DNA of 64,000 nucleotides from Escherichia phage EJP2, in the sequence record OQ411014.1. One strand, given 5' to 3'. Positions 1 to 64,000 of the stretch are shown here, piece after piece (positions within the stretch are counted from its first letter, which is position 1; every line of letters begins with the position of its first letter). Position numbers and translations under genes: made by a program. Below the pieces are notes generated by a model that worked only from the letters and a program-made list of their open reading frames with translations, ran no database searches and had not been told where the DNA came from.

Positions 1-10
1 TGATTCTTAC

Positions 11-517
11 ATGGCTAAAGCAATGGCTAAATCACAGCGTTATAACAACATGCTGAATGGTCGTAAAGCTCCTTACGGTCAGAACCACCCACACAGCCAC
101 TACGTTGGTATGGTTGCTGAACACGCTACTTTAGTACTGATGGAAGAAATCGAACAGCTTCTGAACATTGATATGAAAATCGATGCAGTGTTCCTGGACG
201 ACAAGCGTGACAAAGAATGTGATATCGTTGTGAATGGTCTGCGTATTGAAGTAAAATGCATCAAGTACGGTTCATGGGTAAAATTCGGCCCTTGCATTAC
301 TGCCGCTCAACGTAAGAACATTGAACGCAAAGCTGATGTAGTACTGTGGGCTGTATACAACGAACGTAAACAATCCTTTACGTTTGAAGGTTTCAACCGT
401 GTAGAAGACATTGCTAACATCCCAACTGAAATGACTGGTGTCCAAGGTCGTGAGAAGATCGAAAACCATCCAGTAATGAGTATCATCAAACCTTTACAGG
501 AGATGCAATTTTGCTAA
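11..517 (+). CDS. hypothetical protein; start may lie upstream of window
   Basis: 168-aa ORF; high-expression-type codon choice (cgt/ctg/ggt); weak D-x8-E-x-K nuclease-like motif (CDIVVNGLRIEVK), unverified. Confidence 0.55.
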   Translation: MAKAMAKSQRYNNMLNGRKAPYGQNHPHSHYVGMVAEHATLVLMEEIEQLLNIDMKIDAVFLDDKRDKECDIVVNGLRIEVKCIKYGSWVKFGPCITAAQRKNIERKADVVLWAVYNERKQSFTFEGFNRVEDIANIPTEMTGVQGREKIENHPVMSIIKPLQEMQFC

Positions 518-720
518 AATATTTCTTACACTTCGAAGATGATGATGAGTTTATTGTGGTACGTGAATTTACATTACCACATAAACCACAGAAAGGTGAT
601 TTCATTACAATTGGAACTGAATACCATTCAGTACAATATGTAGTTCAAGAAGTCGATACGTTCCTTGATATTGAAAGTGCAGCGTATAGTGTGAATGTTC
701 ATTTGGAAAAACGAAAATAA
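511..720 (+). CDS. hypothetical small protein
   Basis: 69-aa ORF; start overlaps end of upstream ORF. Confidence 0.45.
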   Translation: MLKYFLHFEDDDEFIVVREFTLPHKPQKGDFITIGTEYHSVQYVVQEVDTFLDIESAAYSVNVHLEKRK

Positions 721-1067
721 TGAAAATTGTATCAGTACTGGCTGGGTTGATTTTATGTAGTACTCAAGTATTGGCTAGTACAGTCGATACTGATGTGAAT
801 TATAAGAAAGAGTACAAGACTGGTATTGCATCTGACCCATCATATTGTATTGGTTATGCGGATGCAAAGATGTTCCAGACAGGGAATCAGCAGTACTACG
901 AATGGATGAAACAATGGTACGAGGATCAAACTAGTAATACTGATTTGGTCATGAAGCCATTCAATCATCGTTCGTACGTTAACGGTACTGAAATGAATAA
1001 TAACGATTTGACCGTTGAATGTGTAATGGAATTTGATTTCATTATCACTGACGAGGTACAACAGTGA
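720..1067 (+). CDS. putative secreted protein
   Basis: 115 aa; N-terminal signal-like segment MKIVSVLAGLILCSTQVLA; ATGA overlap with upstream stop. Confidence 0.6.
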   Translation: MKIVSVLAGLILCSTQVLASTVDTDVNYKKEYKTGIASDPSYCIGYADAKMFQTGNQQYYEWMKQWYEDQTSNTDLVMKPFNHRSYVNGTEMNNNDLTVECVMEFDFIITDEVQQ

Positions 1068-1073
1068 GGCTCT

Positions 1074-1538
1074 ATGAGTGTATTTGATTTGGTATCTAGT
1101 ATTTCGTGGATTGAAGTAATAATCTTTATTGTACTTAGTGCAGTACTGTTCATGTTCATGTTCAACGATGATTACACGTACTGTAAAAAGATTCATAAAG
1201 CATGTGCAGAACCAGTATGGAAATCATTTTGGTATATGCAGTTCATCCCGAATAAGTTCATACGACCGTTTGAAAGCTGGTGTGATGTTTCAACCAGAAC
1301 AGTCCCCACGATTGAAACGATTTTATCTCTCTATGAAGATAATCGAGATTCGTTGATTATCAAACTTATACCTACATTAGATGATGATACAATCGAATTC
1401 ATATGCAAGAGATTACCATCCGTATCAATTAGGGTTAGTAACAAAATGGTTGTGAACTACAGGACTGAGCATGTGATTCCACCACGAGTTCTTGTGGGTT
1501 TGTTGAATATGTACGAAATAGAACGAAAGAAAATCTAG
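1074..1538 (+). CDS. hypothetical membrane-anchored protein
   Basis: 154 aa; single N-terminal hydrophobic helix. Confidence 0.55.
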   Translation: MSVFDLVSSISWIEVIIFIVLSAVLFMFMFNDDYTYCKKIHKACAEPVWKSFWYMQFIPNKFIRPFESWCDVSTRTVPTIETILSLYEDNRDSLIIKLIPTLDDDTIEFICKRLPSVSIRVSNKMVVNYRTEHVIPPRVLVGLLNMYEIERKKI

Positions 1539-1595
1539 ACATATACTTTGAGTGTGTTATAATACAGTCATCAAATAACAAGAAGAGAGGTTTAT

Positions 1596-2045
1596 ATGAA
1601 CGTACTAGGAACGAAGTTCAGTACTGCAATGGGTGCACGTAATGGTTGGTTTACTATCAATGAAGTACTGGACGATACTTTCAAACATTACACGTTCAAT
1701 CAGTGCCTAAAACTCAAAGTAACTCCAGAAACTAAAGATGACATGAACTTCATCGAGTGGGTTATGTATTGGGAAGGTTCACCCGTTGCAGTGCATTTAC
1801 ACGTTCTAACTACAGTATTGAGTACTGGTTATGTGAAAGCAACTGTCATCTCTAAGCGTCATGTATTCACTGATGAAATTGGTGAATTCCCAGGTAAACA
1901 AGCAATCATTGATGGTTACATGATTGATGGGAAATTCATGGATAAGAAGGGTGCAGAGGCATATCATACTCGTAAGCTAATGAACGGGAACTTCCGTCCA
2001 GCAGCTAAGATCCCTGATGCAGTCATTCAACCTAAACGTAAGTAA
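1596..2045 (+). CDS. hypothetical protein
   Basis: 149 aa; RBS gagagg upstream of ATG. Confidence 0.6.
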   Translation: MNVLGTKFSTAMGARNGWFTINEVLDDTFKHYTFNQCLKLKVTPETKDDMNFIEWVMYWEGSPVAVHLHVLTTVLSTGYVKATVISKRHVFTDEIGEFPGKQAIIDGYMIDGKFMDKKGAEAYHTRKLMNGNFRPAAKIPDAVIQPKRK

Positions 2046-2094
2046 TGTAGTCCCTCCTTAACTGGGGGGATTTAAACACATAAGGACAAAATAA

Positions 2095-2520
2095 ATGTTC
2101 AAATATTGTTTCCGTACGTATGTAGTACTGTTCTTAGTACCAGCACTGTACTTGATTACTGCACAACTTAGTAAAATCTTCGAAAGTCTTAGCTTTTTGA
2201 ATTTTACTGCACCAGAACAGTACAAAATTCTATTGACAATAATGTACGTTTTTTCTTTCATATTGTCAGTACTGATCATTTTCAATTCAGGATGTGACTA
2301 CCGAGAGTTTCATATTTTCAGAAACTTCAAGAACGTAACGTACTCAAAGTTCTGGAGTTATATACTCGCAGTCCCTGTTGTATTGAATTTCCATATTGAG
2401 GGCTTCTCGTTCACAACTTTTATGCTCTTCATTGAACCAATTGCAATCTATATGTACATCCATCAACATAACCGATTCGTATTGAGTCATAATCTAGTCC
2501 ACGTAGAGGAACAACCATGA
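2095..2520 (+). CDS. hypothetical integral membrane protein
   Basis: 141 aa; several hydrophobic helices. Confidence 0.55.
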   Translation: MFKYCFRTYVVLFLVPALYLITAQLSKIFESLSFLNFTAPEQYKILLTIMYVFSFILSVLIIFNSGCDYREFHIFRNFKNVTYSKFWSYILAVPVVLNFHIEGFSFTTFMLFIEPIAIYMYIHQHNRFVLSHNLVHVEEQP

Positions 2521-3014
2521 ATACGTATATCAGTGGGTTTTACAAGTACTACCTATCGTTCATAACTATATTTGCTATTCTGTTATTGAATGAAACAGAA
2601 CAATTTGGATCAAAATTCCTATCAGAAGGACTAGGAATCTTCCTTCAGGTTATCTTTGCACTGATGGCTGCTATATCAATGCCAGTACTGATCTATGGTA
2701 TTCATCTTGTTGCGAGCGATGACCAGGATAGTAAGGACTCGTGTATCCGTGAGTACTGCCAAGCAGCAAAATACAGTACTATAAGTTCTATGATACCGTT
2801 TAGTCTAATTATTGTGTCCATCGCTATGTTCCAATGGAATCTGTGGTTCTTGGGTACGTTTGGATTTATTATGGGTTGTAGTATGTACGTGTATACTAAA
2901 GTACTATACAGAGGTGAGAAACTATTCACTGAAATGGAAGCCCGTAAAGGAACCAAAGCACCAGTTCAACGAGAAGAGCGAGATTATTTCGCACCAGACG
3001 ATGAGTTACCTTGA
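2517..3014 (+). CDS. hypothetical integral membrane protein
   Basis: 165 aa; about four hydrophobic segments; 4-nt overlap with upstream gene. Confidence 0.55.
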   Translation: MNTYISGFYKYYLSFITIFAILLLNETEQFGSKFLSEGLGIFLQVIFALMAAISMPVLIYGIHLVASDDQDSKDSCIREYCQAAKYSTISSMIPFSLIIVSIAMFQWNLWFLGTFGFIMGCSMYVYTKVLYRGEKLFTEMEARKGTKAPVQREERDYFAPDDELP

Positions 3015-3074
3015 CACGTACCTGAAGAGTAGCTATAATACTTTCATTGAAGCGAAACTAACAAAGGAAACATA

Positions 3075-3329
3075 ATGGATACCGTACAGATTGAATCTTT
3101 GACTTCACTTGTTCTTGATAATGTAAAAGCTGAAGAAGAAATTTCAGTACAAATCAAAGCAGAGTATCAGTGCATTACTGAAAAGCTCCAAGATGCGAAG
3201 TACACTGTAACGAAAGAAATTGAAGAGCATTATAAGAACATTGAACGTCTGTTCCGTGTCAAGCAAGAACACATTGTTCGTCAGAATAACGCTAAGACTG
3301 CAATCAATAAACTTCTGGGAATCGCATAA
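3075..3329 (+). CDS. hypothetical protein
   Basis: 84 aa; RBS aaggaaa. Confidence 0.55.
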   Translation: MDTVQIESLTSLVLDNVKAEEEISVQIKAEYQCITEKLQDAKYTVTKEIEEHYKNIERLFRVKQEHIVRQNNAKTAINKLLGIA

Positions 3330-3808
3330 TGAAAAACGTACAACAATACATTCAGAACTTCACCGCATATCCAGTATCAGTAATGTTCGGACATATCGAT
3401 ACACCTACTCCTAAGCAGAAGAAAGCGGAGAAACGTGTAGCAGAAATCTGTGAAGAACTGTATCGTTTTGATTGTACAGTACTATCAGATGTGCGAGCAG
3501 CATTCCGCGAGTTAGATGTTCTTATCTCCTTGAGTGATGATAAGTTCCGCATCAAGCAAGTGCGTCTAACTCGTATGACTGGTCGTTTGGCATATTTTGT
3601 TGACAAAGCGGTTGTAATGCTCGATAATATGCACAAGAAAGACCAGCAACTTCAGCAGTACTGGCAACCGCTGTCAATGAAAGCTAAAGTACTGAAGGAT
3701 GAAATCAAATCATTCCTTATCCAGTACGATACTTCAGTTGATAAGATTGTATTACTGTCTGAATTTGACAATGCATACAAAGAAGCCCAAGAGGAAGATA
3801 AGAAATGA
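3329..3808 (+). CDS. hypothetical protein
   Basis: 159 aa; TAATG-type coupling with upstream gene. Confidence 0.6.
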   Translation: MKNVQQYIQNFTAYPVSVMFGHIDTPTPKQKKAEKRVAEICEELYRFDCTVLSDVRAAFRELDVLISLSDDKFRIKQVRLTRMTGRLAYFVDKAVVMLDNMHKKDQQLQQYWQPLSMKAKVLKDEIKSFLIQYDTSVDKIVLLSEFDNAYKEAQEEDKK

Positions 3809-4305
3809 CAACTGTTTTCGTGAGTAAAGAATTAGGAATTGCTATTACTGACTCACGAGCCACGTTTCAAGAGTCCAGGAAGTTTCTTGGGCTTTTTAAC
3901 TTGACTCCATTACCATCGTATAAAGTTGTGAATCAAAAGGCTTTGTATGTTCATGACCGTTTATTCTTAGCATGTGGAAGTGTAGATACTATTGATAAAG
4001 TATTGCAATATTTCATCGACGGTACTAAGTTCAAGATAAACAAGAAAACTCCAAGCTGTGAGTGTCTTCTTCTTGGTAAAGAATACGGTGTACACTTGTA
4101 CGTGTGGAATGGTAAGATTCATAAGAAGACTATCTTCTTGGCGTATAATTTTGTACACTTCATGGGGTCTGGTAGTTCTGCCCTACTCAGAAAGTACTAC
4201 AAGACTTTAGAACGTAATACACCAGATGAAGTTATTGATATTTTCAAGACTGTACATTTGGATGATAGCTTCACTGACGATAACGTAAATTTATACAGAA
4301 TCTAG
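3805..4305 (+). CDS. hypothetical protein
   Basis: 166 aa; ATGA overlap with upstream gene. Confidence 0.6.
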   Translation: MTTVFVSKELGIAITDSRATFQESRKFLGLFNLTPLPSYKVVNQKALYVHDRLFLACGSVDTIDKVLQYFIDGTKFKINKKTPSCECLLLGKEYGVHLYVWNGKIHKKTIFLAYNFVHFMGSGSSALLRKYYKTLERNTPDEVIDIFKTVHLDDSFTDDNVNLYRI

Positions 4306-4334
4306 TTGACAGTCTAAAAGAGATATCATATAAT
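4306..4334 (+). promoter_or_regulatory. sigma70-type promoter
   Basis: TTGACA-N17-TATAAT (ttgacagtctaaaagagatatcatataat). Confidence 0.65.
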
Positions 4335-4364
4335 CATTGCATACCACAACGAGAGAGAAACAAA

Positions 4365-4511
4365 ATGAGTACATTCATCGTAGAATATGTTCTGACTGGT
4401 CAAAGCATCTGGCAGGTACAAATGGTAAAAGCATGTAATAAAGAGCAAGCCCAGAGCACGCTCAAGAAAATGATTTCTGGTGTAGTAACCACCAAAGCAT
4501 ACCCAGCATAA
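4365..4511 (+). CDS. hypothetical small protein (48 aa), below ORF-track cutoff
   Basis: ATG with RBS gagagag upstream, flanked by promoter 4306-4334 and terminator 4526-4554; preferred over the antisense 4326-4562 ORF. Confidence 0.4.
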   Translation: MSTFIVEYVLTGQSIWQVQMVKACNKEQAQSTLKKMISGVVTTKAYPA

Positions 4512-4525
4512 TTTAGAGCTATAAT

Positions 4526-4554
4526 GAATCCGCTCTGTGCGGATTCTTTTTTTT
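4526..4554 (+). terminator. rho-independent terminator
   Basis: hairpin gaatccgc-tctgt-gcggattc followed by T8. Confidence 0.7.
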
Positions 4555-4573
4555 AATATCAAAGGAGAAAGTA

Positions 4574-5566
4574 ATGACTGTAAAACAACTCAATCTAGAA
4601 TCTATTCAAGACGATATCATGGATGAATGTTTTGTAAATGAAAACAATACGTTCGAGCGTATTAGTGAACAGTCACATGACAGTACTGAAGAAGTAGAAG
4701 AAAGTACTGATGACGTAGGTTCTTTCAAGACTTACAACACATCTAGCGTTTTACCAGAAGGTGAGACGAATGAATCTATTATTCGTTTAATCCGTGACGG
4801 TATCAATGTGAAGCGTAACATTGACCTTATCGTACGTAACAACGTAGGCTTAGTATATAGCCAAGCACGTCAGTGTACTTGTAATATCCCATTCCAAGAT
4901 AAAGCACAGTACGCTTTTGAAGGTCTAATGCGTGCAATCCATCGTTATGATGTGAATCAGAATATTCTTTTCAGTACTTACGCTACTGTGTCTATTCGCC
5001 AAACACTCTATAACTTTGGTAATGATGAAGTTCGTCTAATCAGTATTCCACGTCACTTGTCAGTGGATAACATCAAGATTCAGAACTACATTGAGAAGCA
5101 TCGTTCTAAGTTCGGTCGTACCCCAAGTGAAGATGAAATCAGTACTGCTACTGGCATCAAGTTATCCGCAGTGAAACGTGTAGTGCAGTACATGAACAGT
5201 AAGCCAATGAGTTTCGATACTCCAATGGGTTCTGACAGTACTGAAAACGATATGAGCTTAGTGGATGTAATCCCAGGAACTTCCAATGATTACACACTAA
5301 GTGCAGATACAGTTCAGAAAGCACCACTAGATGTAATTGCATTGGTCATGTCTGAACTACCAGAAGAAGAGCAGTTGCTGATCAATAAGATTCACGGCTT
5401 GAATGGACATGAAGAAAGTACTTTTATTGCTCTAGAGACTGCTGGATTGGTAGATGCGAAGGGTAAGAAGCTAACTAACCGTTGCACTATTCATCGTCGT
5501 TACAATGCAATACTGGATAAGATTCGTAATATTCTAAAAGCACGTGACATTTCATTCGATGACTGA
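4574..5566 (+). CDS. sigma-70 family RNA polymerase sigma factor (phage-encoded)
   Basis: 330 aa; region-2-like FSTYATVSIRQTLYNF (compare FSTYATWWIRQ of sigma70) and a C-terminal HTH-like region-4 segment; acidic N-terminus. Confidence 0.65.
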   Translation: MTVKQLNLESIQDDIMDECFVNENNTFERISEQSHDSTEEVEESTDDVGSFKTYNTSSVLPEGETNESIIRLIRDGINVKRNIDLIVRNNVGLVYSQARQCTCNIPFQDKAQYAFEGLMRAIHRYDVNQNILFSTYATVSIRQTLYNFGNDEVRLISIPRHLSVDNIKIQNYIEKHRSKFGRTPSEDEISTATGIKLSAVKRVVQYMNSKPMSFDTPMGSDSTENDMSLVDVIPGTSNDYTLSADTVQKAPLDVIALVMSELPEEEQLLINKIHGLNGHEESTFIALETAGLVDAKGKKLTNRCTIHRRYNAILDKIRNILKARDISFDD

Positions 5567-5726
5567 TATGATTCGTTACAAGGCAAACAAAGTACAAGGA
5601 ACTGCTGTTGTAGTTTTCTTGTACTGGACTGAGAATCCGGTCTATGTTCTGGCAGAGAACAGTACTGTATCGCTGTCGGAGTTCATTGATATAGCAATTG
5701 AAGAATTCAAATCATTAGAGGAATAA
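5544..5726 (+). CDS. hypothetical small protein
   Basis: 60-aa ORF overlapping 3' end of sigma gene; start uncertain (internal ATG at 5568). Confidence 0.35.
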   Translation: MTFHSMTDMIRYKANKVQGTAVVVFLYWTENPVYVLAENSTVSLSEFIDIAIEEFKSLEE

Positions 5727-5730
5727 TACT

Positions 5731-6102
5731 ATGTTGCACAAAGTTGAAGGTTCAAAGCACAATTGGATTGACGAATACGATATCTATGTTGGGTATGATA
5801 CTTCCCCGTGTTGTTGTGAATATGCGGATTACTTCTTGAGTTATGAGATTGAGAGGAATGGAGTACCAGACGAAGAACTAATTGATAAAAGTACTTTCAA
5901 ATGGGAAGAATACGACTTCTATCCATTCGCATCTGCACTGATCGAAAACGTCCCAGGACTTGATGAAGGTGCTATTGCGATGTTCCCAATGATCCACAAA
6001 ACGACTTCCCGTATGGTGTACTTGCACTTGTTTAACGCTCACAATGGTTATTACAGCCACGGGTTCGAAAGCAATACATTCATTGGTAACGGTTCTTTAT
6101 AA
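5731..6102 (+). CDS. hypothetical protein
   Basis: 123 aa; RBS aggaa upstream. Confidence 0.6.
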   Translation: MLHKVEGSKHNWIDEYDIYVGYDTSPCCCEYADYFLSYEIERNGVPDEELIDKSTFKWEEYDFYPFASALIENVPGLDEGAIAMFPMIHKTTSRMVYLHLFNAHNGYYSHGFESNTFIGNGSL

Positions 6103-6111
6103 GGAATTTTT

Positions 6112-6285
6112 GTGAAAACTAAAAACTCAAAATCTTTAGGTACATATGTGAATGGTAATCGCTATGCGAAAATCAGTACATGTATTGATTGCAGTACTGG
6201 AAATACTTTATACTATTACTGTATTCCTGGTGAGCGGGTGTATATCAGTTCAGAAGAATTCAAGAATGAATGGGTAAAAAACTAA
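6112..6285 (+). CDS. hypothetical Cys-rich small protein (57 aa), GTG start
   Basis: GTG 9 nt after RBS aaggaa; CxxC...C pattern (STCIDCSTG...YYCIPG); not in ORF track. Confidence 0.35.
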   Translation: MKTKNSKSLGTYVNGNRYAKISTCIDCSTGNTLYYYCIPGERVYISSEEFKNEWVKN

Positions 6286-6290
6286 AACAA

Positions 6291-6320
6291 AATGCTTGAC
6301 TTCGGTCGAGCATTCTTTTA
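6291..6320 (+). terminator. rho-independent terminator
   Basis: hairpin aatgcttgac-ttcg-gtcgagcatt followed by T-rich run. Confidence 0.55.
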
Positions 6321-6364
6321 ATATAATTGCATCAACTACACTACTACACTTGAGGATAACAATC

Positions 6365-57161: not shown

Positions 57162-57165
57162 TAAC

Positions 57166-57295: not shown

Positions 57296-57338
57296 GCATT
57301 TAAAGTACATTTATTTTAAAAAGAATATGAAGAAAGTA

Positions 57339-57396: not shown

Positions 57397-57418
57397 ACTA
57401 ATTAAGAGAGAAATAAAA

Positions 57419-57625: not shown

Positions 57626-57673
57626 CTTATTCAGTACTGTACAATGTTTTTCAAAGGGGGAACAACTTCCCCC
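57617..57673 (+). promoter_or_regulatory. early-type promoter + leader hairpin
   Basis: TTGCAT-N16-TACAAT then agggggaa-caac-ttccccc; -35 lies in last codons of upstream gene. Confidence 0.65.
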
Positions 57674-57693
57674 GCTAATTAAGGAATAAGAAA

Positions 57694-57930
57694 ATGGCTG
57701 AACAAATTAAATCAACGTCTTCGAATGTGACGGGTACTGTAGCTCACTTTATCGGTGATGAATCGCGTGGTGTTCCCTATTGTGCGGTGCATGTAAACAC
57801 TGAGGGTAACTACTGGTTTACAGTTTACGGATCATATTCATTTGGACGACCTGGACACCAAAAAATCCTGGATAAAGTACAACCAACGGGTAAAAATATC
57901 ACTGCTGAAATGTTTTATAAAAAATCATAA
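57694..57930 (+). CDS. hypothetical small protein
   Basis: 78 aa; RBS aaggaataag. Confidence 0.6.
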   Translation: MAEQIKSTSSNVTGTVAHFIGDESRGVPYCAVHVNTEGNYWFTVYGSYSFGRPGHQKILDKVQPTGKNITAEMFYKKS

Positions 57931-57936
57931 AAGTAC

Positions 57937-57997
57937 TTGCATAACTTATTCAGTACTGTACAATGTTTTATATCGAGAGCGGGGAATACTTCCTCGC
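57937..57997 (+). promoter_or_regulatory. early-type promoter + leader hairpin variant
   Basis: TTGCAT-N16-TACAAT then gagagcggggaatacttcctcgcc. Confidence 0.6.
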
Positions 57998-58018
57998 CTT
58001 AACTAAAAGGATATACTA

Positions 58019-58318
58019 ATGAAAATTGCACTAATCGCCCTGGCCTTGTCTGTTTCCTCTTTCGCCGCTACTGCATCGCGTGATGTACCAACTGAAAAAT
58101 TTATTCAGTGCCAGGTTATCATGACAGACGAAAACACGGGCGGCATGTTTACCAAACCGCTTGAATTAAATCCGGCGATGTTTAAGGCGGGGATGTTCCA
58201 CGAAGAAGACGAAAAAGGCAGTACTACAATCTATTACGACGAACAACGTAAACGCGGCACTGTTACGGTAATGGATGAATCATCAGTTACCTTTACGGGG
58301 ATCATTACCTGTAAGTAA
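58019..58318 (+). CDS. putative secreted protein
   Basis: 99 aa; signal peptide MKIALIALALSVSSFAATA. Confidence 0.6.
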   Translation: MKIALIALALSVSSFAATASRDVPTEKFIQCQVIMTDENTGGMFTKPLELNPAMFKAGMFHEEDEKGSTTIYYDEQRKRGTVTVMDESSVTFTGIITCK

Positions 58319-58367
58319 TAAGGGGAATTATCATCATAACTTTCACTGGCGGTTAACAGTACTGAAT

Positions 58368-58389
58368 CATAGGGGGAATAGTTCCCCCT
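58368..58389 (+). promoter_or_regulatory. leader hairpin without obvious consensus promoter
   Basis: agggggaa-tag-ttccccct upstream of 58421. Confidence 0.35.
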
Positions 58390-58420
58390 TACTATATTAA
58401 ACATCAAAGGAGTAAAGGCA

Positions 58421-58690
58421 ATGGCTATCATCACGGCAAAGACTATCTATACTATTCAACATGGTAATCAGTCCTACCAGGTGGAAGGCGTGGAAGGTTT
58501 AAAACAGTACTGCGACGATATTATGGGCGGCCTGGTTGACCGTATGACGGCGGGGAATGTAGGCCATCATTTAACTGATAAGATGAATCAGCACGCTTTC
58601 TTGATGAAATCATTCGACGAGCTTGATCTAATCGTCGATACCGTTCGCAGTGTAAAACAGTATATTGATGATATAACCAAAGATGATTGA
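58421..58690 (+). CDS. hypothetical small protein (MAII- family)
   Basis: 89 aa; N-terminus MAIITAKTIYTIQ resembles 59639-59818. Confidence 0.55.
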   Translation: MAIITAKTIYTIQHGNQSYQVEGVEGLKQYCDDIMGGLVDRMTAGNVGHHLTDKMNQHAFLMKSFDELDLIVDTVRSVKQYIDDITKDD

Positions 58691-58709
58691 TAGTACTGTA
58701 AACGTGTAT

Positions 58710-58745
58710 AAGCCTGTAGAATCAATTCTACGGGCTTTTTTGTTT
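58710..58745 (+). terminator. rho-independent terminator
   Basis: gcctgtagaat-caa-ttctacgggc followed by T6. Confidence 0.7.
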
Positions 58746-58846
58746 TATATGATGTGTTAGCCTGGCTGGTGGCGTTAAGGCCGTTAGAATGCGATTGAGA
58801 GCGTCGAAAGTATTTTAAAAGTATTTTTAGAAAGTACTTGCACAGT

Positions 58847-58865
58847 ACTGATAAAAGCGTATAAT
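58847..58865 (+). promoter_or_regulatory. early-type promoter driving structured-RNA element
   Basis: TTGCAC-N16-TATAAT. Confidence 0.65.
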
Positions 58866-58872
58866 GTTTTAC

Positions 58873-58948
58873 ATCAGGACGGGGAAGCAAACTAGCTCAA
58901 CCGTTAAGTAGTCCAGGAGTAAGACATACGAAAACCTCCCCTGATAAA
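58873..58948 (+). ncRNA. candidate small structured RNA / leader element (copy 2 of 3)
   Basis: atcaggacgggga ... tcccctgat closing helix; conserved core. Confidence 0.35.
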
Positions 58949-58963
58949 GTACTAAAAAGTAGT

Positions 58964-58991
58964 TTGACAATAGAAAGTAAACGAGTATAAT
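58964..58991 (+). promoter_or_regulatory. sigma70-type promoter
   Basis: TTGACA-N16-TATAAT (tttgacaatagaaagtaaacgagtataat). Confidence 0.65.
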
Positions 58992-59024
58992 ACTCACATC
59001 AACTTAACGAAAGGAATAAAAAAA

Positions 59025-59252
59025 ATGGCTATCATCATCACTCGCGTATCTGGTACAGTTGGCAATGCGGTAGTAGTAGCGGTTATCACTAACAAGAAAG
59101 GTGCGGAACTGCATTTTGCAATGAATAACTGGTCAGTGAATGAGTTCGGGCAGTTCGCTAGTGTAGAATACATTGAAACCTATCAAGTACCGACTATTAG
59201 CTTAACTGATTTAGGTGTCGAGCGTATCCTTTGCCTGGATGAATTAAACTGA
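59025..59252 (+). CDS. hypothetical small protein (MAII- family)
   Basis: 75 aa; RBS aaaggaa. Confidence 0.55.
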   Translation: MAIIITRVSGTVGNAVVVAVITNKKGAELHFAMNNWSVNEFGQFASVEYIETYQVPTISLTDLGVERILCLDELN

Positions 59253-59262
59253 TAAAAAGTAC

Positions 59263-59319
59263 TTGCACAGTACTGAAAAAAGCGTATAATGTTTTATATA
59301 GGGGGAAACAACTTCCCCC
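59263..59319 (+). promoter_or_regulatory. early-type promoter + leader hairpin
   Basis: TTGCAC-N16-TATAAT then agggggaa-acaac-ttccccc. Confidence 0.7.
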
Positions 59320-59339
59320 GCTAATTAAGGAATAAGAAA

Positions 59340-59552
59340 ATGGCTAATATCTGCACTGTACTGAAAAATGCAAAACAAGTTTTATTTTCTGACCATGAAA
59401 ATTTTAATAAAGATATTACAGGCGTTAAGAATATCAAAGATGTAAAAAGTGCAATAGGTATCTATTGCAATATGAAACGTGTTGGAACGTTCGGTGACAA
59501 GGTACTATATCAGGCAGGGGATTACAATTTTACACTGACTATCATTAACTAA
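59340..59552 (+). CDS. hypothetical small protein
   Basis: 70-aa ORF. Confidence 0.55.
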   Translation: MANICTVLKNAKQVLFSDHENFNKDITGVKNIKDVKSAIGIYCNMKRVGTFGDKVLYQAGDYNFTLTIIN

Positions 59553-59571
59553 AAATATTATCACAGTACTA

Positions 59572-59600
59572 TTGACATAATTTGATAGTACTGACATAAT
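59572..59600 (+). promoter_or_regulatory. type-II promoter (TTGACA-N17-CATAAT)
   Basis: ttgacataatttgatagtactgacataat; no leader hairpin. Confidence 0.6.
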
Positions 59601-59638
59601 AACTTTTATCAAGTACATACTATTAAGGAATTTAAAAA

Positions 59639-59818
59639 ATGGCTATCATCGCAAAAACTGAGATTCAAGGCTTAGATTCTATCCTCCTGGCTTATGAGTC
59701 CGAGAAAGGTTTATATGTTGTTTCCTATGGTGATTATATTCGTGACTTTGAAGAAATTGATCAAGCCTTTGAATGCTACATTCGCCAGGTGAATAAAGCA
59801 TACGACGATTACCGGTAA
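59639..59818 (+). CDS. hypothetical small protein (59 aa, MAII- family)
   Basis: ATG after RBS aaggaa; not in ORF track. Confidence 0.45.
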   Translation: MAIIAKTEIQGLDSILLAYESEKGLYVVSYGDYIRDFEEIDQAFECYIRQVNKAYDDYR

Positions 59819-59836
59819 AATATTATCACAGTACTA

Positions 59837-59865
59837 TTGACATAGTTTGATAGTACTGACATAAT
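59837..59865 (+). promoter_or_regulatory. type-II promoter (TTGACA-N17-CATAAT)
   Basis: ttgacatagtttgatagtactgacataat. Confidence 0.6.
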
Positions 59866-59901
59866 AACTTTTATCGAGTGCAACTATTAAGGAATACTAA
59901 A

Positions 59902-60153
59902 ATGCAATCTATCAGTACTTTAATCGATGCAGGTTATGATGTTCGTCGTTCCATGATCGCGGTTAGTTCTTCCCAGGTCGTTCAAAGTGGTTATGTATGT
60001 TTTGTTGTTCGTGGTACATTACAGGAGCGAGCAATAAACCACGATGTAAAGAATAATTGCTCTTACATTGTATTCCGAAAAGTCAAATATAAACTTGATG
60101 TTCCCGTAAAGCCTATTAGCGGGGCGTACAACGTAGAATCATTAAAAGCGTAA
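59902..60153 (+). CDS. hypothetical small protein
   Basis: track ORF from GTG 59878; ATG at 59902 follows RBS aaggaa (83 aa). Confidence 0.55.
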   Translation: MQSISTLIDAGYDVRRSMIAVSSSQVVQSGYVCFVVRGTLQERAINHDVKNNCSYIVFRKVKYKLDVPVKPISGAYNVESLKA

Positions 60154-60221
60154 CAGCATAGCAGTACTGACCATTAACGCCGTAGCGGTCGATTTAGGCC
60201 GCTTATATTGAGGATTTAACT

Positions 60222-60611
60222 ATGAATACTAATCAAGTACTGAACGAAATCGAAAGCATCATTAAGCCGATGAAACGTGTTGATGCAATGCTAACACCGG
60301 AAGAAAGTCGCTTGTATGAGCGATACAGCGTCGAACAAGCCCAGGCGATGGCACGTATTCGCCCCGTTGCCAGTACTGACAAGGAAGATCCAACGTTAGC
60401 CATCCAAAAGAAGATCGACATCTTAGCGGCGAATATGTATATGATTGATGCGTCGCCAGGTAAAGTATTTGCGTATGATGATACAACTGAAAGCGATTTC
60501 TACTATAGCCTGGACGTGGGGGATCTTCCTATCGAGTCAGTGATTGAACATGTTGTAACTGTTGCTTATGATCATTTAGTTAAAAACAATGTTGACAGTA
60601 CTATCAAATAG
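60222..60611 (+). CDS. hypothetical protein
   Basis: 129 aa; RBS gaggat. Confidence 0.6.
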   Translation: MNTNQVLNEIESIIKPMKRVDAMLTPEESRLYERYSVEQAQAMARIRPVASTDKEDPTLAIQKKIDILAANMYMIDASPGKVFAYDDTTESDFYYSLDVGDLPIESVIEHVVTVAYDHLVKNNVDSTIK

Positions 60612-60654
60612 CGTATAATGTTTTACATCGAGAGCGGGAATACTTCCCGCCTCA
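60592..60654 (+). promoter_or_regulatory. early-type promoter + leader hairpin
   Basis: TTGACA-N16-TATAAT then gagagcgggaa-tac-ttcccgcctc; promoter embedded in 3' end of upstream CDS. Confidence 0.7.
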
Positions 60655-60674
60655 CTAATTAAGGAATTAAAATT

Positions 60675-60908
60675 ATGATGCACATCCTTACTCTTACTCT
60701 GAATCACAAAACTTATGAAACTATCCTCGTCATCTCTGAGTCGCAGGAAAAGGTACGTGATCACGCGGCGAAAGTAATGCAGGCATTCAGTGAACGTTAT
60801 CCTACATGGGATCGTGATTATAGTATGTTACACATTGCCGATGGCAACGCGATAATGGTCCAGGACGTGCCAAATCACGGGGCTGAATCAGTACTAGTTT
60901 TATTTTAA
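60675..60908 (+). CDS. hypothetical small protein
   Basis: 77 aa; RBS aaggaa. Confidence 0.6.
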   Translation: MMHILTLTLNHKTYETILVISESQEKVRDHAAKVMQAFSERYPTWDRDYSMLHIADGNAIMVQDVPNHGAESVLVLF

Positions 60909-60916
60909 AATAGTAC

Positions 60917-60978
60917 TTGCATAGTACTGAAAAAAGCGTATAATGTTTTATATCGAGAGCGGGAATAGTTCCCGCCTT
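60917..60978 (+). promoter_or_regulatory. early-type promoter + leader hairpin
   Basis: TTGCAT-N16-TATAAT then gagagcgggaa-tag-ttcccgcc. Confidence 0.7.
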
Positions 60979-60996
60979 AACTAAAAGGGTAACATC

Positions 60997-61209
60997 ATGC
61001 AAGGTCAACTAATCGTTCGTAAATGGTCTGATACTAACGCTAAACCGTGGGATGTACAATACATCGCCCCAAATGGTGAATCCAGATATCAACCAGGTGT
61101 AACGCATAGTACTGAGCAATTCGCCGCCGCTCATCGCGAACGTCTGTTACAATCAATTCAGCAAGGTTCCGGTGAAAAATTCATTCAGGATCATTGGCTG
61201 AAAGATTAA
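60997..61209 (+). CDS. hypothetical small protein
   Basis: 70-aa ORF. Confidence 0.6.
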   Translation: MQGQLIVRKWSDTNAKPWDVQYIAPNGESRYQPGVTHSTEQFAAAHRERLLQSIQQGSGEKFIQDHWLKD

Positions 61210-61227
61210 CAAAAAAAGATTAAAAAA

Positions 61228-61258
61228 GGGATTGACTCCGGTCAGTCCTTTTTGCTAT
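61228..61258 (+). terminator. rho-independent terminator (cassette family)
   Basis: gggattgac-tccg-gtcagtcc followed by T5. Confidence 0.65.
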
Positions 61259-61351
61259 TATATACGCATCGAAACAATCTAGCCCACCGGGTGCATAAAT
61301 GTATCTTTTTTTTGCTGGTGGCTAGTACTGAAAACTATTTTTAAAAAGTAC

Positions 61352-61379
61352 TTGCATTGTACTTAGAATAAAGTATAAT
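61352..61379 (+). promoter_or_regulatory. early-type promoter driving structured-RNA element
   Basis: TTGCAT-N16-TATAAT. Confidence 0.6.
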
Positions 61380-61387
61380 GTTTTACA

Positions 61388-61461
61388 TCAGGACGGGGAA
61401 CGAAACAAGTAACCCCGTTAAGTAGTCCAGGAGTAAGACATACGAAAACCTCCCCTGATAA
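61388..61461 (+). ncRNA. candidate small structured RNA / leader element (copy 3 of 3)
   Basis: atcaggacgggga ... tcccctgat closing helix; inner stem acgggg/ccccgt. Confidence 0.35.
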
Positions 61462-61467
61462 AATAGT

Positions 61468-61495
61468 TTGACAATAGAAATTAAACGAGTATAAT
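61468..61495 (+). promoter_or_regulatory. sigma70-type promoter
   Basis: TTGACA-N16-TATAAT (tttgacaatagaaattaaacgagtataat). Confidence 0.65.
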
Positions 61496-61527
61496 ACTTA
61501 CATCAACTACTGTTAAGGAAACATAAA

Positions 61528-61803
61528 ATGCGGATTCTACTGACAGCTAACGAAATCGAACAAGTACTGACTACTAACCTGGAAGACTGGAAACGTGAAG
61601 CAGATATCCAGGCGGTTCAATTGCTTAACGATAAGTTAACGCCGGATGACTTAAGCAAAATTGTAGATCCTCAATTCTACGAAGATATCCACGACACCGC
61701 GTTAAGCGTCGAGGATGTACTTGATAAGCATTTTATTGATATTGATTTGCAGGTTTACGGTCGTAAAAACTTTATCACTATCCACGACATTTACAATAAT
61801 TAA
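61528..61803 (+). CDS. hypothetical small acidic protein
   Basis: 91-aa ORF. Confidence 0.6.
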   Translation: MRILLTANEIEQVLTTNLEDWKREADIQAVQLLNDKLTPDDLSKIVDPQFYEDIHDTALSVEDVLDKHFIDIDLQVYGRKNFITIHDIYNN

Positions 61804-61805
61804 GT

Positions 61806-61866
61806 ATTGACAAAGTATCTTAGTACTGTATAATAGTTTACATCAAGGGGGGAATGGTTCCCCTCA
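61806..61866 (+). promoter_or_regulatory. promoter + leader hairpin
   Basis: TTGACA-N16-TATAAT then aggggggaa-tgg-ttcccct. Confidence 0.65.
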
Positions 61867-61883
61867 AGTCCAGGAGATACACC

Positions 61884-62147
61884 ATGAACGCTATTGAAAT
61901 CACTATTAATGCACACGTATACGACAACGTAGTACTGCAAACTACTATGACCGCCAATGATAGCAGTACTTTGCGAAATACTGTTATCAGTGCCGTTTGT
62001 GCTGCTGTTGGTGATGTAGCACTGGAGAACGCACAACATATTAACCAGGCCTTTACTATGTGCAAGCGTGATAACTCAAAACATATTATCGTCGAAGGTG
62101 TAGGCGGTGTTGAATTTAACGTATACATGAAAAAGGTAACAGCATGA
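61884..62147 (+). CDS. hypothetical small protein
   Basis: track ORF from 61854; ATG at 61884 follows RBS aggaga (87 aa). Confidence 0.55.
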   Translation: MNAIEITINAHVYDNVVLQTTMTANDSSTLRNTVISAVCAAVGDVALENAQHINQAFTMCKRDNSKHIIVEGVGGVEFNVYMKKVTA

Positions 62148-62335
62148 CCGTCGATGAAGTCCGCAAAGTACTGGCAGCGTTACGCTATCATAATCATAGC
62201 AAGGTCATAAATGATCCTGATTATGTTGATTCAAGCCTGGAGGAAGACACCTTGAACGCGATTAGCTATATGCAAACGTTACTGAAGCGTATGACTGAGA
62301 AGAATAGATCTGATTTCATCGGTGATAAAATTTAA
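62144..62335 (+). CDS. hypothetical small protein
   Basis: 63 aa; ATGA overlap with upstream gene. Confidence 0.55.
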   Translation: MTVDEVRKVLAALRYHNHSKVINDPDYVDSSLEEDTLNAISYMQTLLKRMTEKNRSDFIGDKI

Positions 62336-62342
62336 AAAGTAC

Positions 62343-62405
62343 TTGCACAGTACTGATAAAAGCGTATAATGTTTTATATCGAGAGCGGGAATACTTCCCG
62401 CCTCA
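62343..62405 (+). promoter_or_regulatory. early-type promoter + leader hairpin
   Basis: TTGCAC-N16-TATAAT then gagagcgggaa-tac-ttcccgcctc. Confidence 0.7.
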
Positions 62406-62423
62406 CTATTAAGGGATAACAAA

Positions 62424-62642
62424 ATGAATTTAAATAAAGTCGAAACGAAAACTATGGTTGAAGCTATTAAACACGGTTTCACATTTAGAAATGATTCACA
62501 TTTTATTAATTTTCAACAAGGCCATAGAACTATTAAAAAACTAACAGACAAAGGTTTATTAGTAGAAGTGAATGAAGGGAACGGCGTGGAATATCGCCCT
62601 ACCCATGACGGTATTACATTTATGAAATACAGTGTAAAATAA
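62424..62642 (+). CDS. hypothetical small protein
   Basis: 72-aa ORF. Confidence 0.6.
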   Translation: MNLNKVETKTMVEAIKHGFTFRNDSHFINFQQGHRTIKKLTDKGLLVEVNEGNGVEYRPTHDGITFMKYSVK

Positions 62643-62654
62643 TTCAAAAAGTAC

Positions 62655-62717
62655 TTGCACAGTACTGAGATTCAGGTATAATGTTTTACATAGAGCGGGG
62701 GAATGGTTCTCCCGCCT
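62655..62717 (+). promoter_or_regulatory. early-type promoter + leader hairpin
   Basis: TTGCAC-N16-TATAAT then agagcggggga-atgg-ttctcccgcc. Confidence 0.65.
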
Positions 62718-62735
62718 ACATTAAGGAATAGAATC

Positions 62736-62960
62736 ATGACTACATACGCAGCACTCGAATCAGTAGTATCAGACCTGGCATTTGAATCTAAGCCGTTTGA
62801 TGCGATCTATAGTACTGATTACCGTGATGCCGTCCTGAATAGTACGCAGGAAGAAAAAGATAAACTTATCGCAACATACCATGAAGCATGGAAGTACTAC
62901 CGCCAATGGGAAAAAGAAGAAAGTGAGTCTACCATCGACGGCCTGAATAATTTAATTTAA
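62736..62960 (+). CDS. hypothetical small protein
   Basis: track ORF from 62703; ATG at 62736 follows RBS aaggaa (74 aa). Confidence 0.55.
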   Translation: MTTYAALESVVSDLAFESKPFDAIYSTDYRDAVLNSTQEEKDKLIATYHEAWKYYRQWEKEESESTIDGLNNLI

Positions 62961-62980
62961 AAAGTTTTATTTCAGTACTA

Positions 62981-63009
62981 TTGACATAGCTTGATAGTAC
63001 TGACATAAT
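62981..63009 (+). promoter_or_regulatory. type-II promoter (TTGACA-N17-CATAAT)
   Basis: ttgacatagcttgatagtactgacataat. Confidence 0.6.
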
Positions 63010-63046
63010 AACTTTTATCAAGTACATACTATTAAGGAAACAAATC

Positions 63047-63460
63047 ATGACTTCTCAAGCTCAAAACGTCCTGGCCCAAAATATTCAAGCTGACAAAAAT
63101 CATGCCGCTATGGTTGTTGGTTATATTCAAGCTATGCAATTCAGTACTGTACACAATGAGAACGGCGATTACCTGGAAGATTATGAGCTATCTGATGAAG
63201 CACGTCAAGCGGCGGTGATTGCATGTTCTCGTTTCCTTGAGAAACACGGTAATGATCTGGAAGTAGTTCGCGGCATGTTTATTGACTATAGTTATGAGAA
63301 AGCAGGTAATGATCTGTTTCTTACCCGCGAAGGTCACGGAACTGGTTTTTGGGATCGTGATTTAGGTCACTACAGCGATGTATTCACGAAGTACTGCGAA
63401 AGTATTAATGTTTGTGATCCGTACCTGGGCGATGATAACTTGATCTATATGGGTGAGTAA
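63047..63460 (+). CDS. hypothetical protein
   Basis: 137 aa; RBS aaggaaa. Confidence 0.6.
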   Translation: MTSQAQNVLAQNIQADKNHAAMVVGYIQAMQFSTVHNENGDYLEDYELSDEARQAAVIACSRFLEKHGNDLEVVRGMFIDYSYEKAGNDLFLTREGHGTGFWDRDLGHYSDVFTKYCESINVCDPYLGDDNLIYMGE

Positions 63461-63721
63461 ATGGCTGTAGGATTTGCAAAGGACGGAGCGGAGCAATTAG
63501 AGATTCTGGCGGTCGTGGAGGCCGCTGTACAGCACGCAAGAAATCAGCTAGGGGATAGTACTACTGAATCACTTAAACACTGTCAGGACTGTTTTAAGCC
63601 TATTCCTGAACGTCGTAGAGAACTGGTTAAAGGTTGCAAATATTGTATTGACTGTCAAACGGAATATGATACTATATTTAAACGAGATCCGCGTAATTGC
63701 TGGCATAGGTCGATGAGATAG
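63461..63721 (+). CDS. TraR/DksA-family C4 zinc-finger protein
   Basis: 86 aa; HCQDCFKPIPERRRELVKGCKYCIDCQ matches the CxxC-x-PIPxxRR-x-CxxC pattern of TraR-like proteins; TAAATG coupling. Confidence 0.6.
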   Translation: MAVGFAKDGAEQLEILAVVEAAVQHARNQLGDSTTESLKHCQDCFKPIPERRRELVKGCKYCIDCQTEYDTIFKRDPRNCWHRSMR

Positions 63722-63743
63722 GGGATCACTCCCCTGTTTTATT
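63721..63743 (+). terminator. rho-independent terminator
   Basis: ggggatcactcccc followed by tgttttatt. Confidence 0.55.
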
Positions 63744-63808
63744 ATTTCAGTACTGTAACCTATAGATACATTTATGCACCCGGTGGGTTAGTTGTTGTCA
63801 TGGGATAT

Positions 63809-63837
63809 ATTATGCCAGTACTGGATAAGGTTGTCAA
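63809..63837 (-). promoter_or_regulatory. minus-strand type-II promoter inside repeated element
   Basis: reverse complement reads TTGACA-accttatccagtactgg-CATAAT. Confidence 0.55.
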
Positions 63838-63871
63838 CAATTATTTTGATGTAATTATTTTAAAAAAGTAC

Positions 63872-63933
63872 TTGCACAGTACTGAAAAAGGCGTATAATG
63901 TTTTACATCGAGAGGGGGAATACTTCTCCCTGG
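63872..63933 (+). promoter_or_regulatory. early-type promoter + leader hairpin
   Basis: TTGCAC-N16-TATAAT then gagaggggga-atac-ttctccct. Confidence 0.65.
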
Positions 63934-63951
63934 TACATTAAGGAATAAAAA

Positions 63952-64000
63952 ATGAAAGCATCAAAAAAACGTAATACCAAGAAATCATCTTCAACGTTCG
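63952..64000 (+). CDS. hypothetical basic protein, 3'-truncated by window edge
   Basis: ATG after RBS aaggaa; MKASKKRNTKKSSSTF... Confidence 0.4.
   Translation, partial: MKASKKRNTKKSSSTF

Follow-up and report, generated by a model that had tools for sequence, protein, structure and literature searches.

Highly iterated palindrome 1 (HIP1) of the cyanobacteria (GCGATCGC) recurs at intervals of a few hundred bases, both in coding sequence and outside it, in several reading frames and in many-fold excess. Its copies are conserved at orthologous positions, and a link to a cognate methyltransferase has been reported; to our knowledge, no function has been established for it. HIP1 is the closest known phenomenon to the one described here, the over-representation of the palindrome AGTACT in a 64,000-base stretch of Escherichia phage EJP2 (OQ411014.1; hereafter the window, 37.3% G+C), a jumbo myovirus of the Rak2/121Q group. 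The statistics and the conservation are of the same kind: AGTACT is in many-fold excess, occupies coding and non-coding DNA in several frames, and is conserved between orthologous loci. The sequence, however, is a different one (CGATCG does not occur in the window, so this is not HIP1 proper), and AGTACT differs further in being carried by a virus, in standing out against a background from which palindromes have been purged, and in being built into promoter-like and terminator-like sites. We know of no earlier iterated palindrome of this kind in a virus. Searches of the full-text literature found no description of an over-representation of AGTACT, or of palindromes, in these phages (subscription journals being outside the scope of the search), and the papers on CBB, RaK2, phAPEC6, fEgEco12, PA5oct and 121Q contain no description of AGTACT.

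Other dispersed signals resemble AGTACT in part. The stoperators of cluster A mycobacteriophages are a single short site repeated over the phage genome, also outside classical operators, but they are asymmetric 13-14-mers, a few dozen per genome, intergenic and oriented with transcription, whereas AGTACT is a palindrome, is some ten times as dense and lies mostly within genes. Chi, FtsK-orienting polar sequences (KOPS) and DNA-uptake sequences are likewise selected, over-represented words found genome-wide in coding and non-coding DNA, and uptake sequences form terminator stems as inverted pairs, as do AGTACT half-sites. These words, however, are asymmetric, skewed in orientation and read by known cellular machines; AGTACT, being palindromic, cannot point in one direction, and relative to transcription its two flanks are symmetric. 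The sites of the nucleoid-occlusion protein SlmA, itself a symmetric dimer, are 12-bp palindromes with AGTACT at their center that are scattered over the chromosome, but there are about 50 of them per 4.6 Mb as opposed to 294 AGTACT per 64 kb (a roughly thousandfold difference in density), and they avoid promoters, whereas AGTACT sits inside promoter-like sites. Finally, the target of the restriction enzyme ScaI (AGT^ACT) is the identical 6-bp palindrome. Exposed phages normally avoid restriction targets, yet AGTACT shows none of the depletion expected of an avoided type II target; it is in 10-16-fold excess in a window from which 23 other palindromic hexamers, and GCGC, are missing. The analysis found no cognate enzyme.

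Exact counting of the window gave 294 copies of AGTACT, 104 of the octamer CAGTACTG, 11 of TTCAGTACTGAA and 711 of GTAC. Under an order-1 Markov model, AGTACT is the top-ranked hexamer (23.8 expected, z = 78), and CAGTACTG is the most deviant octamer of all (z 136). With the motif masked, the expectation for AGTACT becomes 18 (order 1) or 29.7 (order 2), from which the 10-16-fold excess is derived. The octamer averaged 1.12 ± 1.16 copies in 100 dinucleotide-preserving shuffles, none of which reached 104. Synonymous-codon shuffling, which preserves each protein and overall codon usage, left 49.3 ± 6.2 copies of AGTACT within open reading frames (ORFs; 120 mechanical calls) compared with the 213 observed (z 26.5), and 4.7 ± 2.0 copies of the octamer compared with 65 (z 30). 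This null is conservative, because codon usage has already been inflated by the motif. An initial annotation of the window, made by eye, had claimed strong over-representation with a copy every 200-300 bp; the excess survives the Markov and codon-shuffle nulls that it had proposed as a check, and the spacing averages 218 bp, in coding and non-coding DNA alike. For the first 3 kb, its tally of five full octamers was exact (733, 1141, 1619, 2267 and 2683) and its tally of 15 AGTACT was one short of the actual 16 (133, 340, 734, 759, 892, 1142, 1620, 1664, 1821, 2124, 2268, 2545, 2684, 2752, 2775 and 2900), the coordinates that it had offered as examples being correct to within about 10 bases.

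By our own ORF calls, AGTACT has a density of 3.8/kb in coding DNA and 9.9/kb in non-coding DNA (213 and 81 copies), and the region at 51.2-53.3 kb is indeed as dense as had been noticed (Table 1). Within ORFs, the motif is read as AGT-ACT in 97 cases, as xxA-GTA-CTx in 83 and as xAG-TAC-Txx in 33. It had been called frame-independent, which is right in that all three frames are occupied, but their usage is biased.

Are the individual sites maintained? When the window is aligned with BF17 and 121Q (77-88% identity), 65-71% of its AGTACT copies recur unchanged in the relative, compared with 34-45% for all hexamers, and AGTACT is level with TATAAT as the best-conserved frequent hexamer. Third-codon positions are 91% identical within the motif, compared with 73% (BF17) and 66% (121Q) elsewhere. 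AGTACT sites are thus under purifying selection at the DNA level, even inside genes. A three-way comparison found 45 shared sites, 18 found only in the window and nine found only in Asteriusvirus. Four pairs of window-only and Asteriusvirus-only sites lie 7-14 bp apart (40353/40367, 45911/45919, 53763/53752 and 56865/56872), where chance would provide an estimated 0.35 or so. These pairs of losses and gains resemble binding-site turnover, in which some site is kept in the neighborhood.

The encoded proteins are affected as well. Ser-Thr dipeptides number 174 (107 expected), of which 97 are spelled AGT-ACT (27 expected), and Val-Leu dipeptides number 201 (113 expected), while the reversed dipeptides, Thr-Ser and Leu-Val, are at expectation. 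Tyrosine in the context xAG-Tyr-Txx is encoded by TAC in 31 of 32 cases, compared with 42% overall. The spread over genes is also more even than random placement would make it, with at least one AGTACT in 102 of the 120 ORFs (88.3 ± 3.8 expected, P = 0.0006). That the enrichment reflects selection, as the initial annotation had argued, is supported by synonymous-site conservation, local replacement, skewed dipeptides, a core conserved throughout the clade and the palindrome-avoiding background.

The preferred site is larger than the hexamer. Its consensus is T-N-C-AGTACT-G-N-A, with a preference that is graded over about 12 bp: in the window, position 1 is T in 47% of copies, and position 3 (that is, -1) is C in 54%, with G the rarest base at 6%. 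G is avoided at -1 in every lineage (6-13%). C dominates at -1 in the window, Hallingskeid, Asteriusvirus and RaK2, and A or T in the GAP32-like phages and XaC1. The hexamer core is invariant throughout the clade, and the flank preferences drift. When copies are oriented by transcription, the upstream flanks and the complemented downstream flanks cannot be told apart at five of six positions, the sixth being marginal (p = 0.02), which argues against a signal at the RNA level. Hairpins formed by paired copies were rejected on the same ground and because pairs less than 50 bp apart are no more common than an exponential model predicts. The two half-sites behave almost independently (294 observed compared with 246 expected from half-site frequencies), and neighboring copies favor spacings of 11, 20-24 (22) and 32-33 bp. 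Half-sites that are additive, graded and symmetric are the pattern expected of a dimeric DNA-binding protein, and not of a strict enzyme site. The initial annotation had listed a dimeric protein, a modification target, and packaging, nucleoid-organization or recombination signals as possible explanations; two-fold symmetric reading of double-stranded DNA is supported, but none of the evidence settles the choice among these functions.

The trait follows a clade of phages. AGTACT is the top hexamer (z 22-75) in all of the clade members sampled, which comprised BF17, 121Q, RaK2, GAP32, Hallingskeid, XaC1 and nine metagenomic contigs of 350-378 kb; the recorded hosts of clade members are Escherichia, Klebsiella, Cronobacter, Erwinia and Xanthomonas. 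There are 233 copies in 46 kb of BF17, 221 in 50 kb of 121Q, 114 in 50 kb of replication and structural genes of Klebsiella phage RaK2, 114 in 50 kb of Cronobacter phage GAP32 (with 82 in 30 kb and 51 in 21 kb of two more regions), 96 in 25 kb of Erwinia phage Hallingskeid, 86 in 20.5 kb of Xanthomonas phage XaC1, and 46-71 per 21 kb in each of the nine contigs. Among the controls, no enrichment was found in E. coli K-12 (3 copies in 50 kb), in phage T4, which has a similar G+C content and host (4 in 50 kb), or in Vibrio jumbo phage 2.275.O (9 in 41 kb), and Pseudomonas phage PA5oct has a single copy in 40 kb where 11 are expected. With K-12 as the assumed host, the density in phage DNA is about 75 times that of the host, so that the host shows no comparable enrichment and a feature of the host genome is ruled out. 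(PA5oct was also considered for an analogous palindrome of its own, CTGCAG, but this is merely 4-fold up, with a z of 8, can be explained by codons and is not comparable.) Since the trait tracks the phage clade across host genera, its reader is more likely to be a phage product than a host one.

Other palindromes fare quite differently. Of the 64 palindromic hexamers, 23 occur zero times in the window, including AAGCTT (20 expected), GGTACC (14) and CCATGG (14), and AGTACT is the only one that is strongly enriched. With so many palindromes missing, the genome shows what is classically seen after exposure to restriction enzymes, AGTACT excepted. The tetramer GCGC has no copies in the window (about 53 expected) and is absent too from each Rak2-like locus sampled, about 0.5 Mb altogether; GCGC absence and AGTACT excess co-occur in every case sampled. 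In the controls, GCGC is found 342 times in 50 kb of E. coli (every 146 bp), 62 times in T4, 35 times in 40 kb of PA5oct and 90 times in 41 kb of Vibrio phage 2.275.O. Because the phages that lack GCGC have different hosts, a phage-encoded nuclease directed at this tetramer is a plausible cause of its absence. An excess of AGTACT together with no GCGC also makes a simple metagenomic signature for the clade.

Part of the AGTACT population is placed where an operator might be. Twenty-two promoter-like sites, recognized by their sigma-70-type consensus alone, hold the motif in three fixed geometries, so that it lies in the spacer, abuts the -10 element, or flanks or is fused to the -35 element (Table 1). 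In class A (n = 10), AGTACT-TGCAY-AGTACTG-N9-TATAAT, two motifs 11 bp apart, or one helical turn, flank a weak -35. In class B (n = 9), TTGACA-N8-10-AGTACTG-N0-1-TATAAT, the motif abuts the -10, and in the remaining three sites, TTGACAGTACT...TATAAT, it is merged into the -35. Confinement to intergenic DNA, as for operators, is not seen, since 72% of AGTACT copies fall within ORFs. Ten terminator-like hairpins, one of them at the distal end, lie in or flank an array of RCC1-repeat genes and have the form CCAGTACTG-loop-GTACTGG or GTGCTGG, followed by a T run. (The array mentioned in the initial annotation consists of these tandem paralogues, and not of tRNAs.) The contexts quoted there for terminator stems are present in the array hairpins; those quoted for promoter spacers are likewise present, but they deserve less weight than they were given, as the copies may partly stem from duplicated cassettes.

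A second kind of hairpin, GAGCGGGAA-N3-5-TTCCCGCCTC, is found directly 3' of the class A promoters (54582-54620, 55963-56000, 59293-59330, 62373-62410 and similar). It is followed by a Shine-Dalgarno sequence, lacks a T run and has no Rfam match, and it is probably a stem-loop in the 5' untranslated region common to many early transcripts.

What, then, reads AGTACT? It is likely that the motif is a selected recognition site in duplex DNA for a symmetric reader specific to this phage lineage. As to the nature of the reader, we tentatively favor a binding protein that does not cut, which may decorate the phage chromosome and act at early promoters; the graded 12-bp preference, the helical phasing, the turnover of sites, the even coverage and the promoter geometry all point in this direction. 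The Rak2/121Q-like lineage would encode a symmetric, sequence-specific dimer with an optimum near T-N-C-AGTACT-G-N-A, and selection would hold about one site per 200 bp over the whole chromosome while most other short palindromes are purged. The dimer would bind without cutting and thereby decorate, mark or organize the phage chromosome. It would presumably also modulate early transcription, because sites are fixed in and around the -35 and -10 elements of early promoters.

Several points weigh against such a binding protein. A search of 107 window ORFs with Pfam (at E <= 0.001 and at E <= 0.5) and of 24 ORFs with PHROGs recognized no repressor-type DNA-binding domain; the matches were to sigma-70, DksA/TraR, RCC1, kinase, HNH, one DUF and unknowns only. 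(The annotation of Hallingskeid around its sigma gene consists of hypotheticals throughout.) The best-conserved candidate nearby is not a plain binder; it has a nuclease fold whose catalytic triad is intact. The promoter cassettes are duplicated, so that their copies do not count as independent evidence. The higher density of AGTACT in non-coding DNA would fit equally well with a uniform pressure acting under weaker constraint, in which case a regulatory role may be secondary or absent. Finally, there is the rival explanation that AGTACT is a target for modification.

According to this explanation, a phage methyltransferase or base modifier marks AGTACT and labels the DNA as self, possibly with a reader of the mark, and high density is selected since the mark works only where a site exists. 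A strict 6-bp palindromic core with no variation among clade members is what type II enzymes typically recognize, and a lone tolerated palindrome, in 294 copies amid 23 purged ones, would be safe if modified. The annotations of relatives include N6-adenine and C5-cytosine methyltransferases and a Mom-like protein (no methyltransferase lies in the window), and a conserved protein with a weak match to the PUA-like fold (YTH, EVE, ASCH, McrB-N), a class that reads modified bases, adjoins the conserved nuclease gene in 10 of 10 related loci. However, methyltransferase targets are not normally enriched, and modification would account for tolerance of the motif, but not for a 10-16-fold excess or for the replacement of lost sites. 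Enzyme sites do not usually show a symmetric flank preference graded over 12 bp. Some clade members lack one of the methyltransferases (GAP32_519 is without a counterpart in CBB), and two regions of GAP32 that were searched for such enzymes yielded just a Dam-like one, which does not occur throughout the clade. Ten enzymes cut fEgEco12 DNA normally, indicating that there is no bulk modification, although none of their sites overlaps AGTACT. On balance, modification appears unlikely, but it is the most serious of the alternatives.

A further possibility, which we regard as doubtful, is that AGTACT is the site of a context-restricted phage nuclease, such as a junction resolvase or nickase, in which case frequent sites would let recombination, replication or packaging proceed anywhere in the 350-kb genome. 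The candidate is the PD-(D/E)XK protein encoded at the left end of the window. It occurs in the same 71 phage records as define the clade (65 protein clusters, with no bacterial homologues), its residues D84, E93 and K95 are invariant, and it is far better conserved than the neighboring sigma factor, being 49-78% identical across genera by tblastn (78% to Hallingskeid) compared with 36-42%. The even coverage of genes would suit an enzyme that needs a site everywhere. On the other hand, a resolvase needs no palindromic site, a homologue with 34% identity exists in a distant Vibrio phage in which AGTACT is not enriched, and the fixed promoter geometry is left unexplained. No homologue of known specificity was found in this clade-confined family, and the protein is at least an equally good candidate for a nuclease that would account for the absence of GCGC. 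A nuclease and a modified-base reader are together the domain content of modification-dependent restriction systems. The nuclease and its PUA-like neighbor could be the reader of AGTACT, the agent of GCGC absence, or neither, and are best taken as a lead and not as a finding.

The two sequence signatures could also be combined into a two-key code that distinguishes self from host without base modification, with AGTACT as the mark to have and GCGC as the mark to lack. A phage protein would read AGTACT and then protect, organize or license the DNA, and the PD-(D/E)XK nuclease, perhaps with its PUA-like partner, would target GCGC and destroy host DNA. Such a code is improbable on present evidence.

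It is very unlikely that the motif spreads by drive, that is, by biased repair or gene conversion toward the AGTACT strand and without benefit to the phage, like the very short patch (VSP) repair that acts on CCWGG in E. coli. Drive would leave the same trace at synonymous sites as selection and could prevail over weak constraints on the proteins; the conserved nuclease belongs to a fold class that includes Vsr, and the C-to-T neighbor AGTATT/AATACT is the least enriched of the one-mismatch neighbors (ratio 1.17). Conversion of the VSP type, however, depletes its substrate word, and all nine classes of one-mismatch neighbors are found at 1.2-2.7 times expectation. With no neighbor depleted, VSP-like conversion from a single neighbor was rejected. 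Vsr itself is absent from the fold matches, and drive predicts neither replacement within 7-14 bp nor the even spread over genes nor the fixed positions in promoters.

Still less probable is a host factor that is bound or titrated by the motif, chiefly SlmA, by which the phage DNA would control host division. The published SlmA site, GTGAGTACTCAC, is a 12-bp palindrome that requires G1, T2 and a purine at position 3, with A4 and G5 (Tonthat et al. 2011, PMC3020112). The core is identical (A4, G5 and T6 are shared, as is T2), and SlmA is present in the Enterobacterales, to which most of the recorded hosts belong. The flanks, however, are incompatible with this specificity: the phage consensus has T1 and C3, and at position 3 no base is less frequent than G (6-13% in every lineage). 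The window has no match to GTRAGYRCTYAC and no full SlmA site, and no SlmA homologue encoded by these phages was found. SlmA was consequently rejected as the reader. Enrichment is just as strong in the phage whose recorded host is Xanthomonas vesicatoria, which would count further against SlmA if that host lacks the protein. An artefact of composition, codon usage or repeats can be dismissed. It is true that AGT, ACT and GTA are preferred codons and that several of the promoter and terminator copies sit in duplicated cassettes. Against this, no null of the dinucleotide, Markov, codon-order or synonymous-codon type removes the excess (z 26-136), part of the codon preference is itself produced by the motif, and the surroundings of the 213 coding copies lose their resemblance to one another after about 4 bases. 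The T4 control, moreover, has a similar G+C content and host and next to no copies.

If a phage protein does read AGTACT, an entire clade of phages with genomes of 350 kb bears a barcode strong enough to alter codon choice and even dipeptide content. These phages would then provide a tractable system for the function of HIP-type palindromes, being culturable, growing on genetically easy hosts and carrying a motif that is the site of a commercial enzyme, ScaI. The matter bears on how jumbo phages that have neither modified DNA nor a nucleus distinguish and protect their DNA, on the control of early genes, and on engineering. Many phages of the clade are candidates for phage therapy against E. 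coli, Klebsiella, Salmonella and Erwinia, and such phages could be crippled if their genomes were recoded or synthesized with no attention to the motif.

Table 1. Blocks of the window with their AGTACT content, and the promoter-like, terminator-like and candidate-gene features discussed in the text.
Feature	Position	Strand	Remarks
Left gene block	1-33346	+	137 AGTACT, 4.1/kb
RCC1-paralogue block	33347-50501	-	55 AGTACT, 3.2/kb; one in 5' arm of most inter-paralogue terminators
Non-coding block	51195-53324		21 AGTACT, 9.9/kb
Small early-gene array	53325-64000	+	77 AGTACT, 7.2/kb; own promoter per gene
Candidate PD-(D/E)XK nuclease-fold gene	11-517	+	N-terminally truncated; invariant D...E-x-K
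Class A promoter-like site	54547-54581	+	AGTACT-TGCAC-AGTACTG-N9-TATAAT
Class A promoter-like site	55117-55151	+	
Class A promoter-like site	55928-55962	+	
Class A promoter-like site	56854-56888	+	
Class A promoter-like site	58833-58867	+	
Class A promoter-like site	59258-59292	+	
Class A promoter-like site	60912-60946	+	
Class A promoter-like site	62338-62372	+	
Class A promoter-like site	62650-62684	+	
Class A promoter-like site	63867-63901	+	
Class B promoter-like site	9538-9565	+	
Class B promoter-like site	21732-21759	+	
Class B promoter-like site	50438-50466	+	
Class B promoter-like site	51972-51999	+	
Class B promoter-like site	54898-54926	+	
Class B promoter-like site	59572-59600	+	Second AGTACT 22 bp upstream
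Class B promoter-like site	59837-59865	+	Second AGTACT 22 bp upstream
Class B promoter-like site	61807-61834	+	12/12 sigma-70 consensus
Class B promoter-like site	62981-63009	+	Second AGTACT 22 bp upstream
Promoter-like site, motif fused to -35	53758-53785	+	12/12 consensus
Promoter-like site, motif fused to -35	56253-56280	+	12/12 consensus
Promoter-like site, motif fused to -35	60592-60619	+	12/12 consensus
Terminator-like hairpin	33351-33384	-	5' arm with CCAGTACT
Terminator-like hairpin	36989-37016	-	ACCAGTACTG...GCTGGT, then T run
Terminator-like hairpin	38452-38475	-	CCAGTACTG-N8-GTACTGG, then T run
Terminator-like hairpin	39699-39728	-	CCAGTACTG kind
Terminator-like hairpin	40891-40912	-	CCAGTACTG kind
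Terminator-like hairpin	42176-42205	-	CCAGTACTG kind
Terminator-like hairpin	43454-43481	-	CCAGTACTG kind
Terminator-like hairpin	44703-44726	-	CCAGTACTG kind
Terminator-like hairpin	47132-47151	-	CCAGTACTG kind
Terminator-like hairpin	48104-48129	-	CCAGTACTG kind

The window is a mosaic. Its right third is 82-88% identical in nucleotide sequence to Asteriusvirus phages (BF17, fEgEco12, G17, phAPEC6 and 121Q), and its left part (1-20000) has almost no nucleotide matches, the nearest proteins being those of Erwinia phage Hallingskeid. The sigma factor (4574-5566), for example, is 60% identical to that of Hallingskeid and 36% identical to that of 121Q. Other genes of the left block encode a T7 0.7-like kinase, a virion protein and an HNH nuclease. 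The RCC1 array consists of 14 tandem paralogues with RCC1 (beta-propeller) repeats, of 298-465 amino acids, between 33386 and 50396 on the minus strand; their spacers are near-identical, and most have a terminator at the 3' end. The array is common to Asteriusvirus phages, where its members are annotated as "regulator of chromosome condensation". Scans of the window for tRNA genes and Rfam families gave no tRNA and no Rfam match.

Phage fEgEco12 has direct terminal repeats of 20,993 bp (PMC13070987). By homology with this phage, the boundary of the right terminal repeat, and thus the end of the genome, probably lies about 175-200 bp to the left of 51,726, inside the non-coding block. With the boundary there, the terminal repeat would take in the promoter-rich array of small genes (53.3-64 kb), an arrangement that would recall the first-injected pre-early region of T5. 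Two AGTACT copies are found just upstream of the presumed boundary, both in the window phage and in fEgEco12. The non-coding block also has direct repeats of a unit of about 38 bp, aaattttggagtaccaacgaaattaaatcccgatc, in two tandem copies (51773-51850), and a run of short repeats resembling GGCTAAAC and GTCTGGAC without AGTACT (52431-52560). These may be terminus or replication signals.

Chi (GCTGGTGG) occurs seven times in the window (13730, 28765, 40623, 52089, 52184, 58765 and 61314), where 0.7-1.7 copies are expected. There are 16 copies in 46 kb of BF17 and 11 in 50 kb of 121Q, comparable to the 14 in 50 kb of E. coli, and 0-2 copies in the sampled loci of relatives that infect hosts other than E. 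coli, which represent different genome regions.

A further element of about 430 nt, at 7926-8370 on the plus strand, is non-coding, with two spurious minus-strand ORFs overlaid. It is found at 67-86% nucleotide identity in 71 records of Rak2-like phages, in four or five places per genome by BLAST, and is mostly unannotated. It has no Rfam match and possesses a promoter-like site of its own after a terminator. RNAalifold, applied to 10 copies, predicted 77 pairs, 28 of which have compensatory changes, so that the element is probably a structured RNA not previously described. In the window copy, the predicted structure includes a hairpin at 8161-8199, in which two CAGTACTG motifs are paired together.

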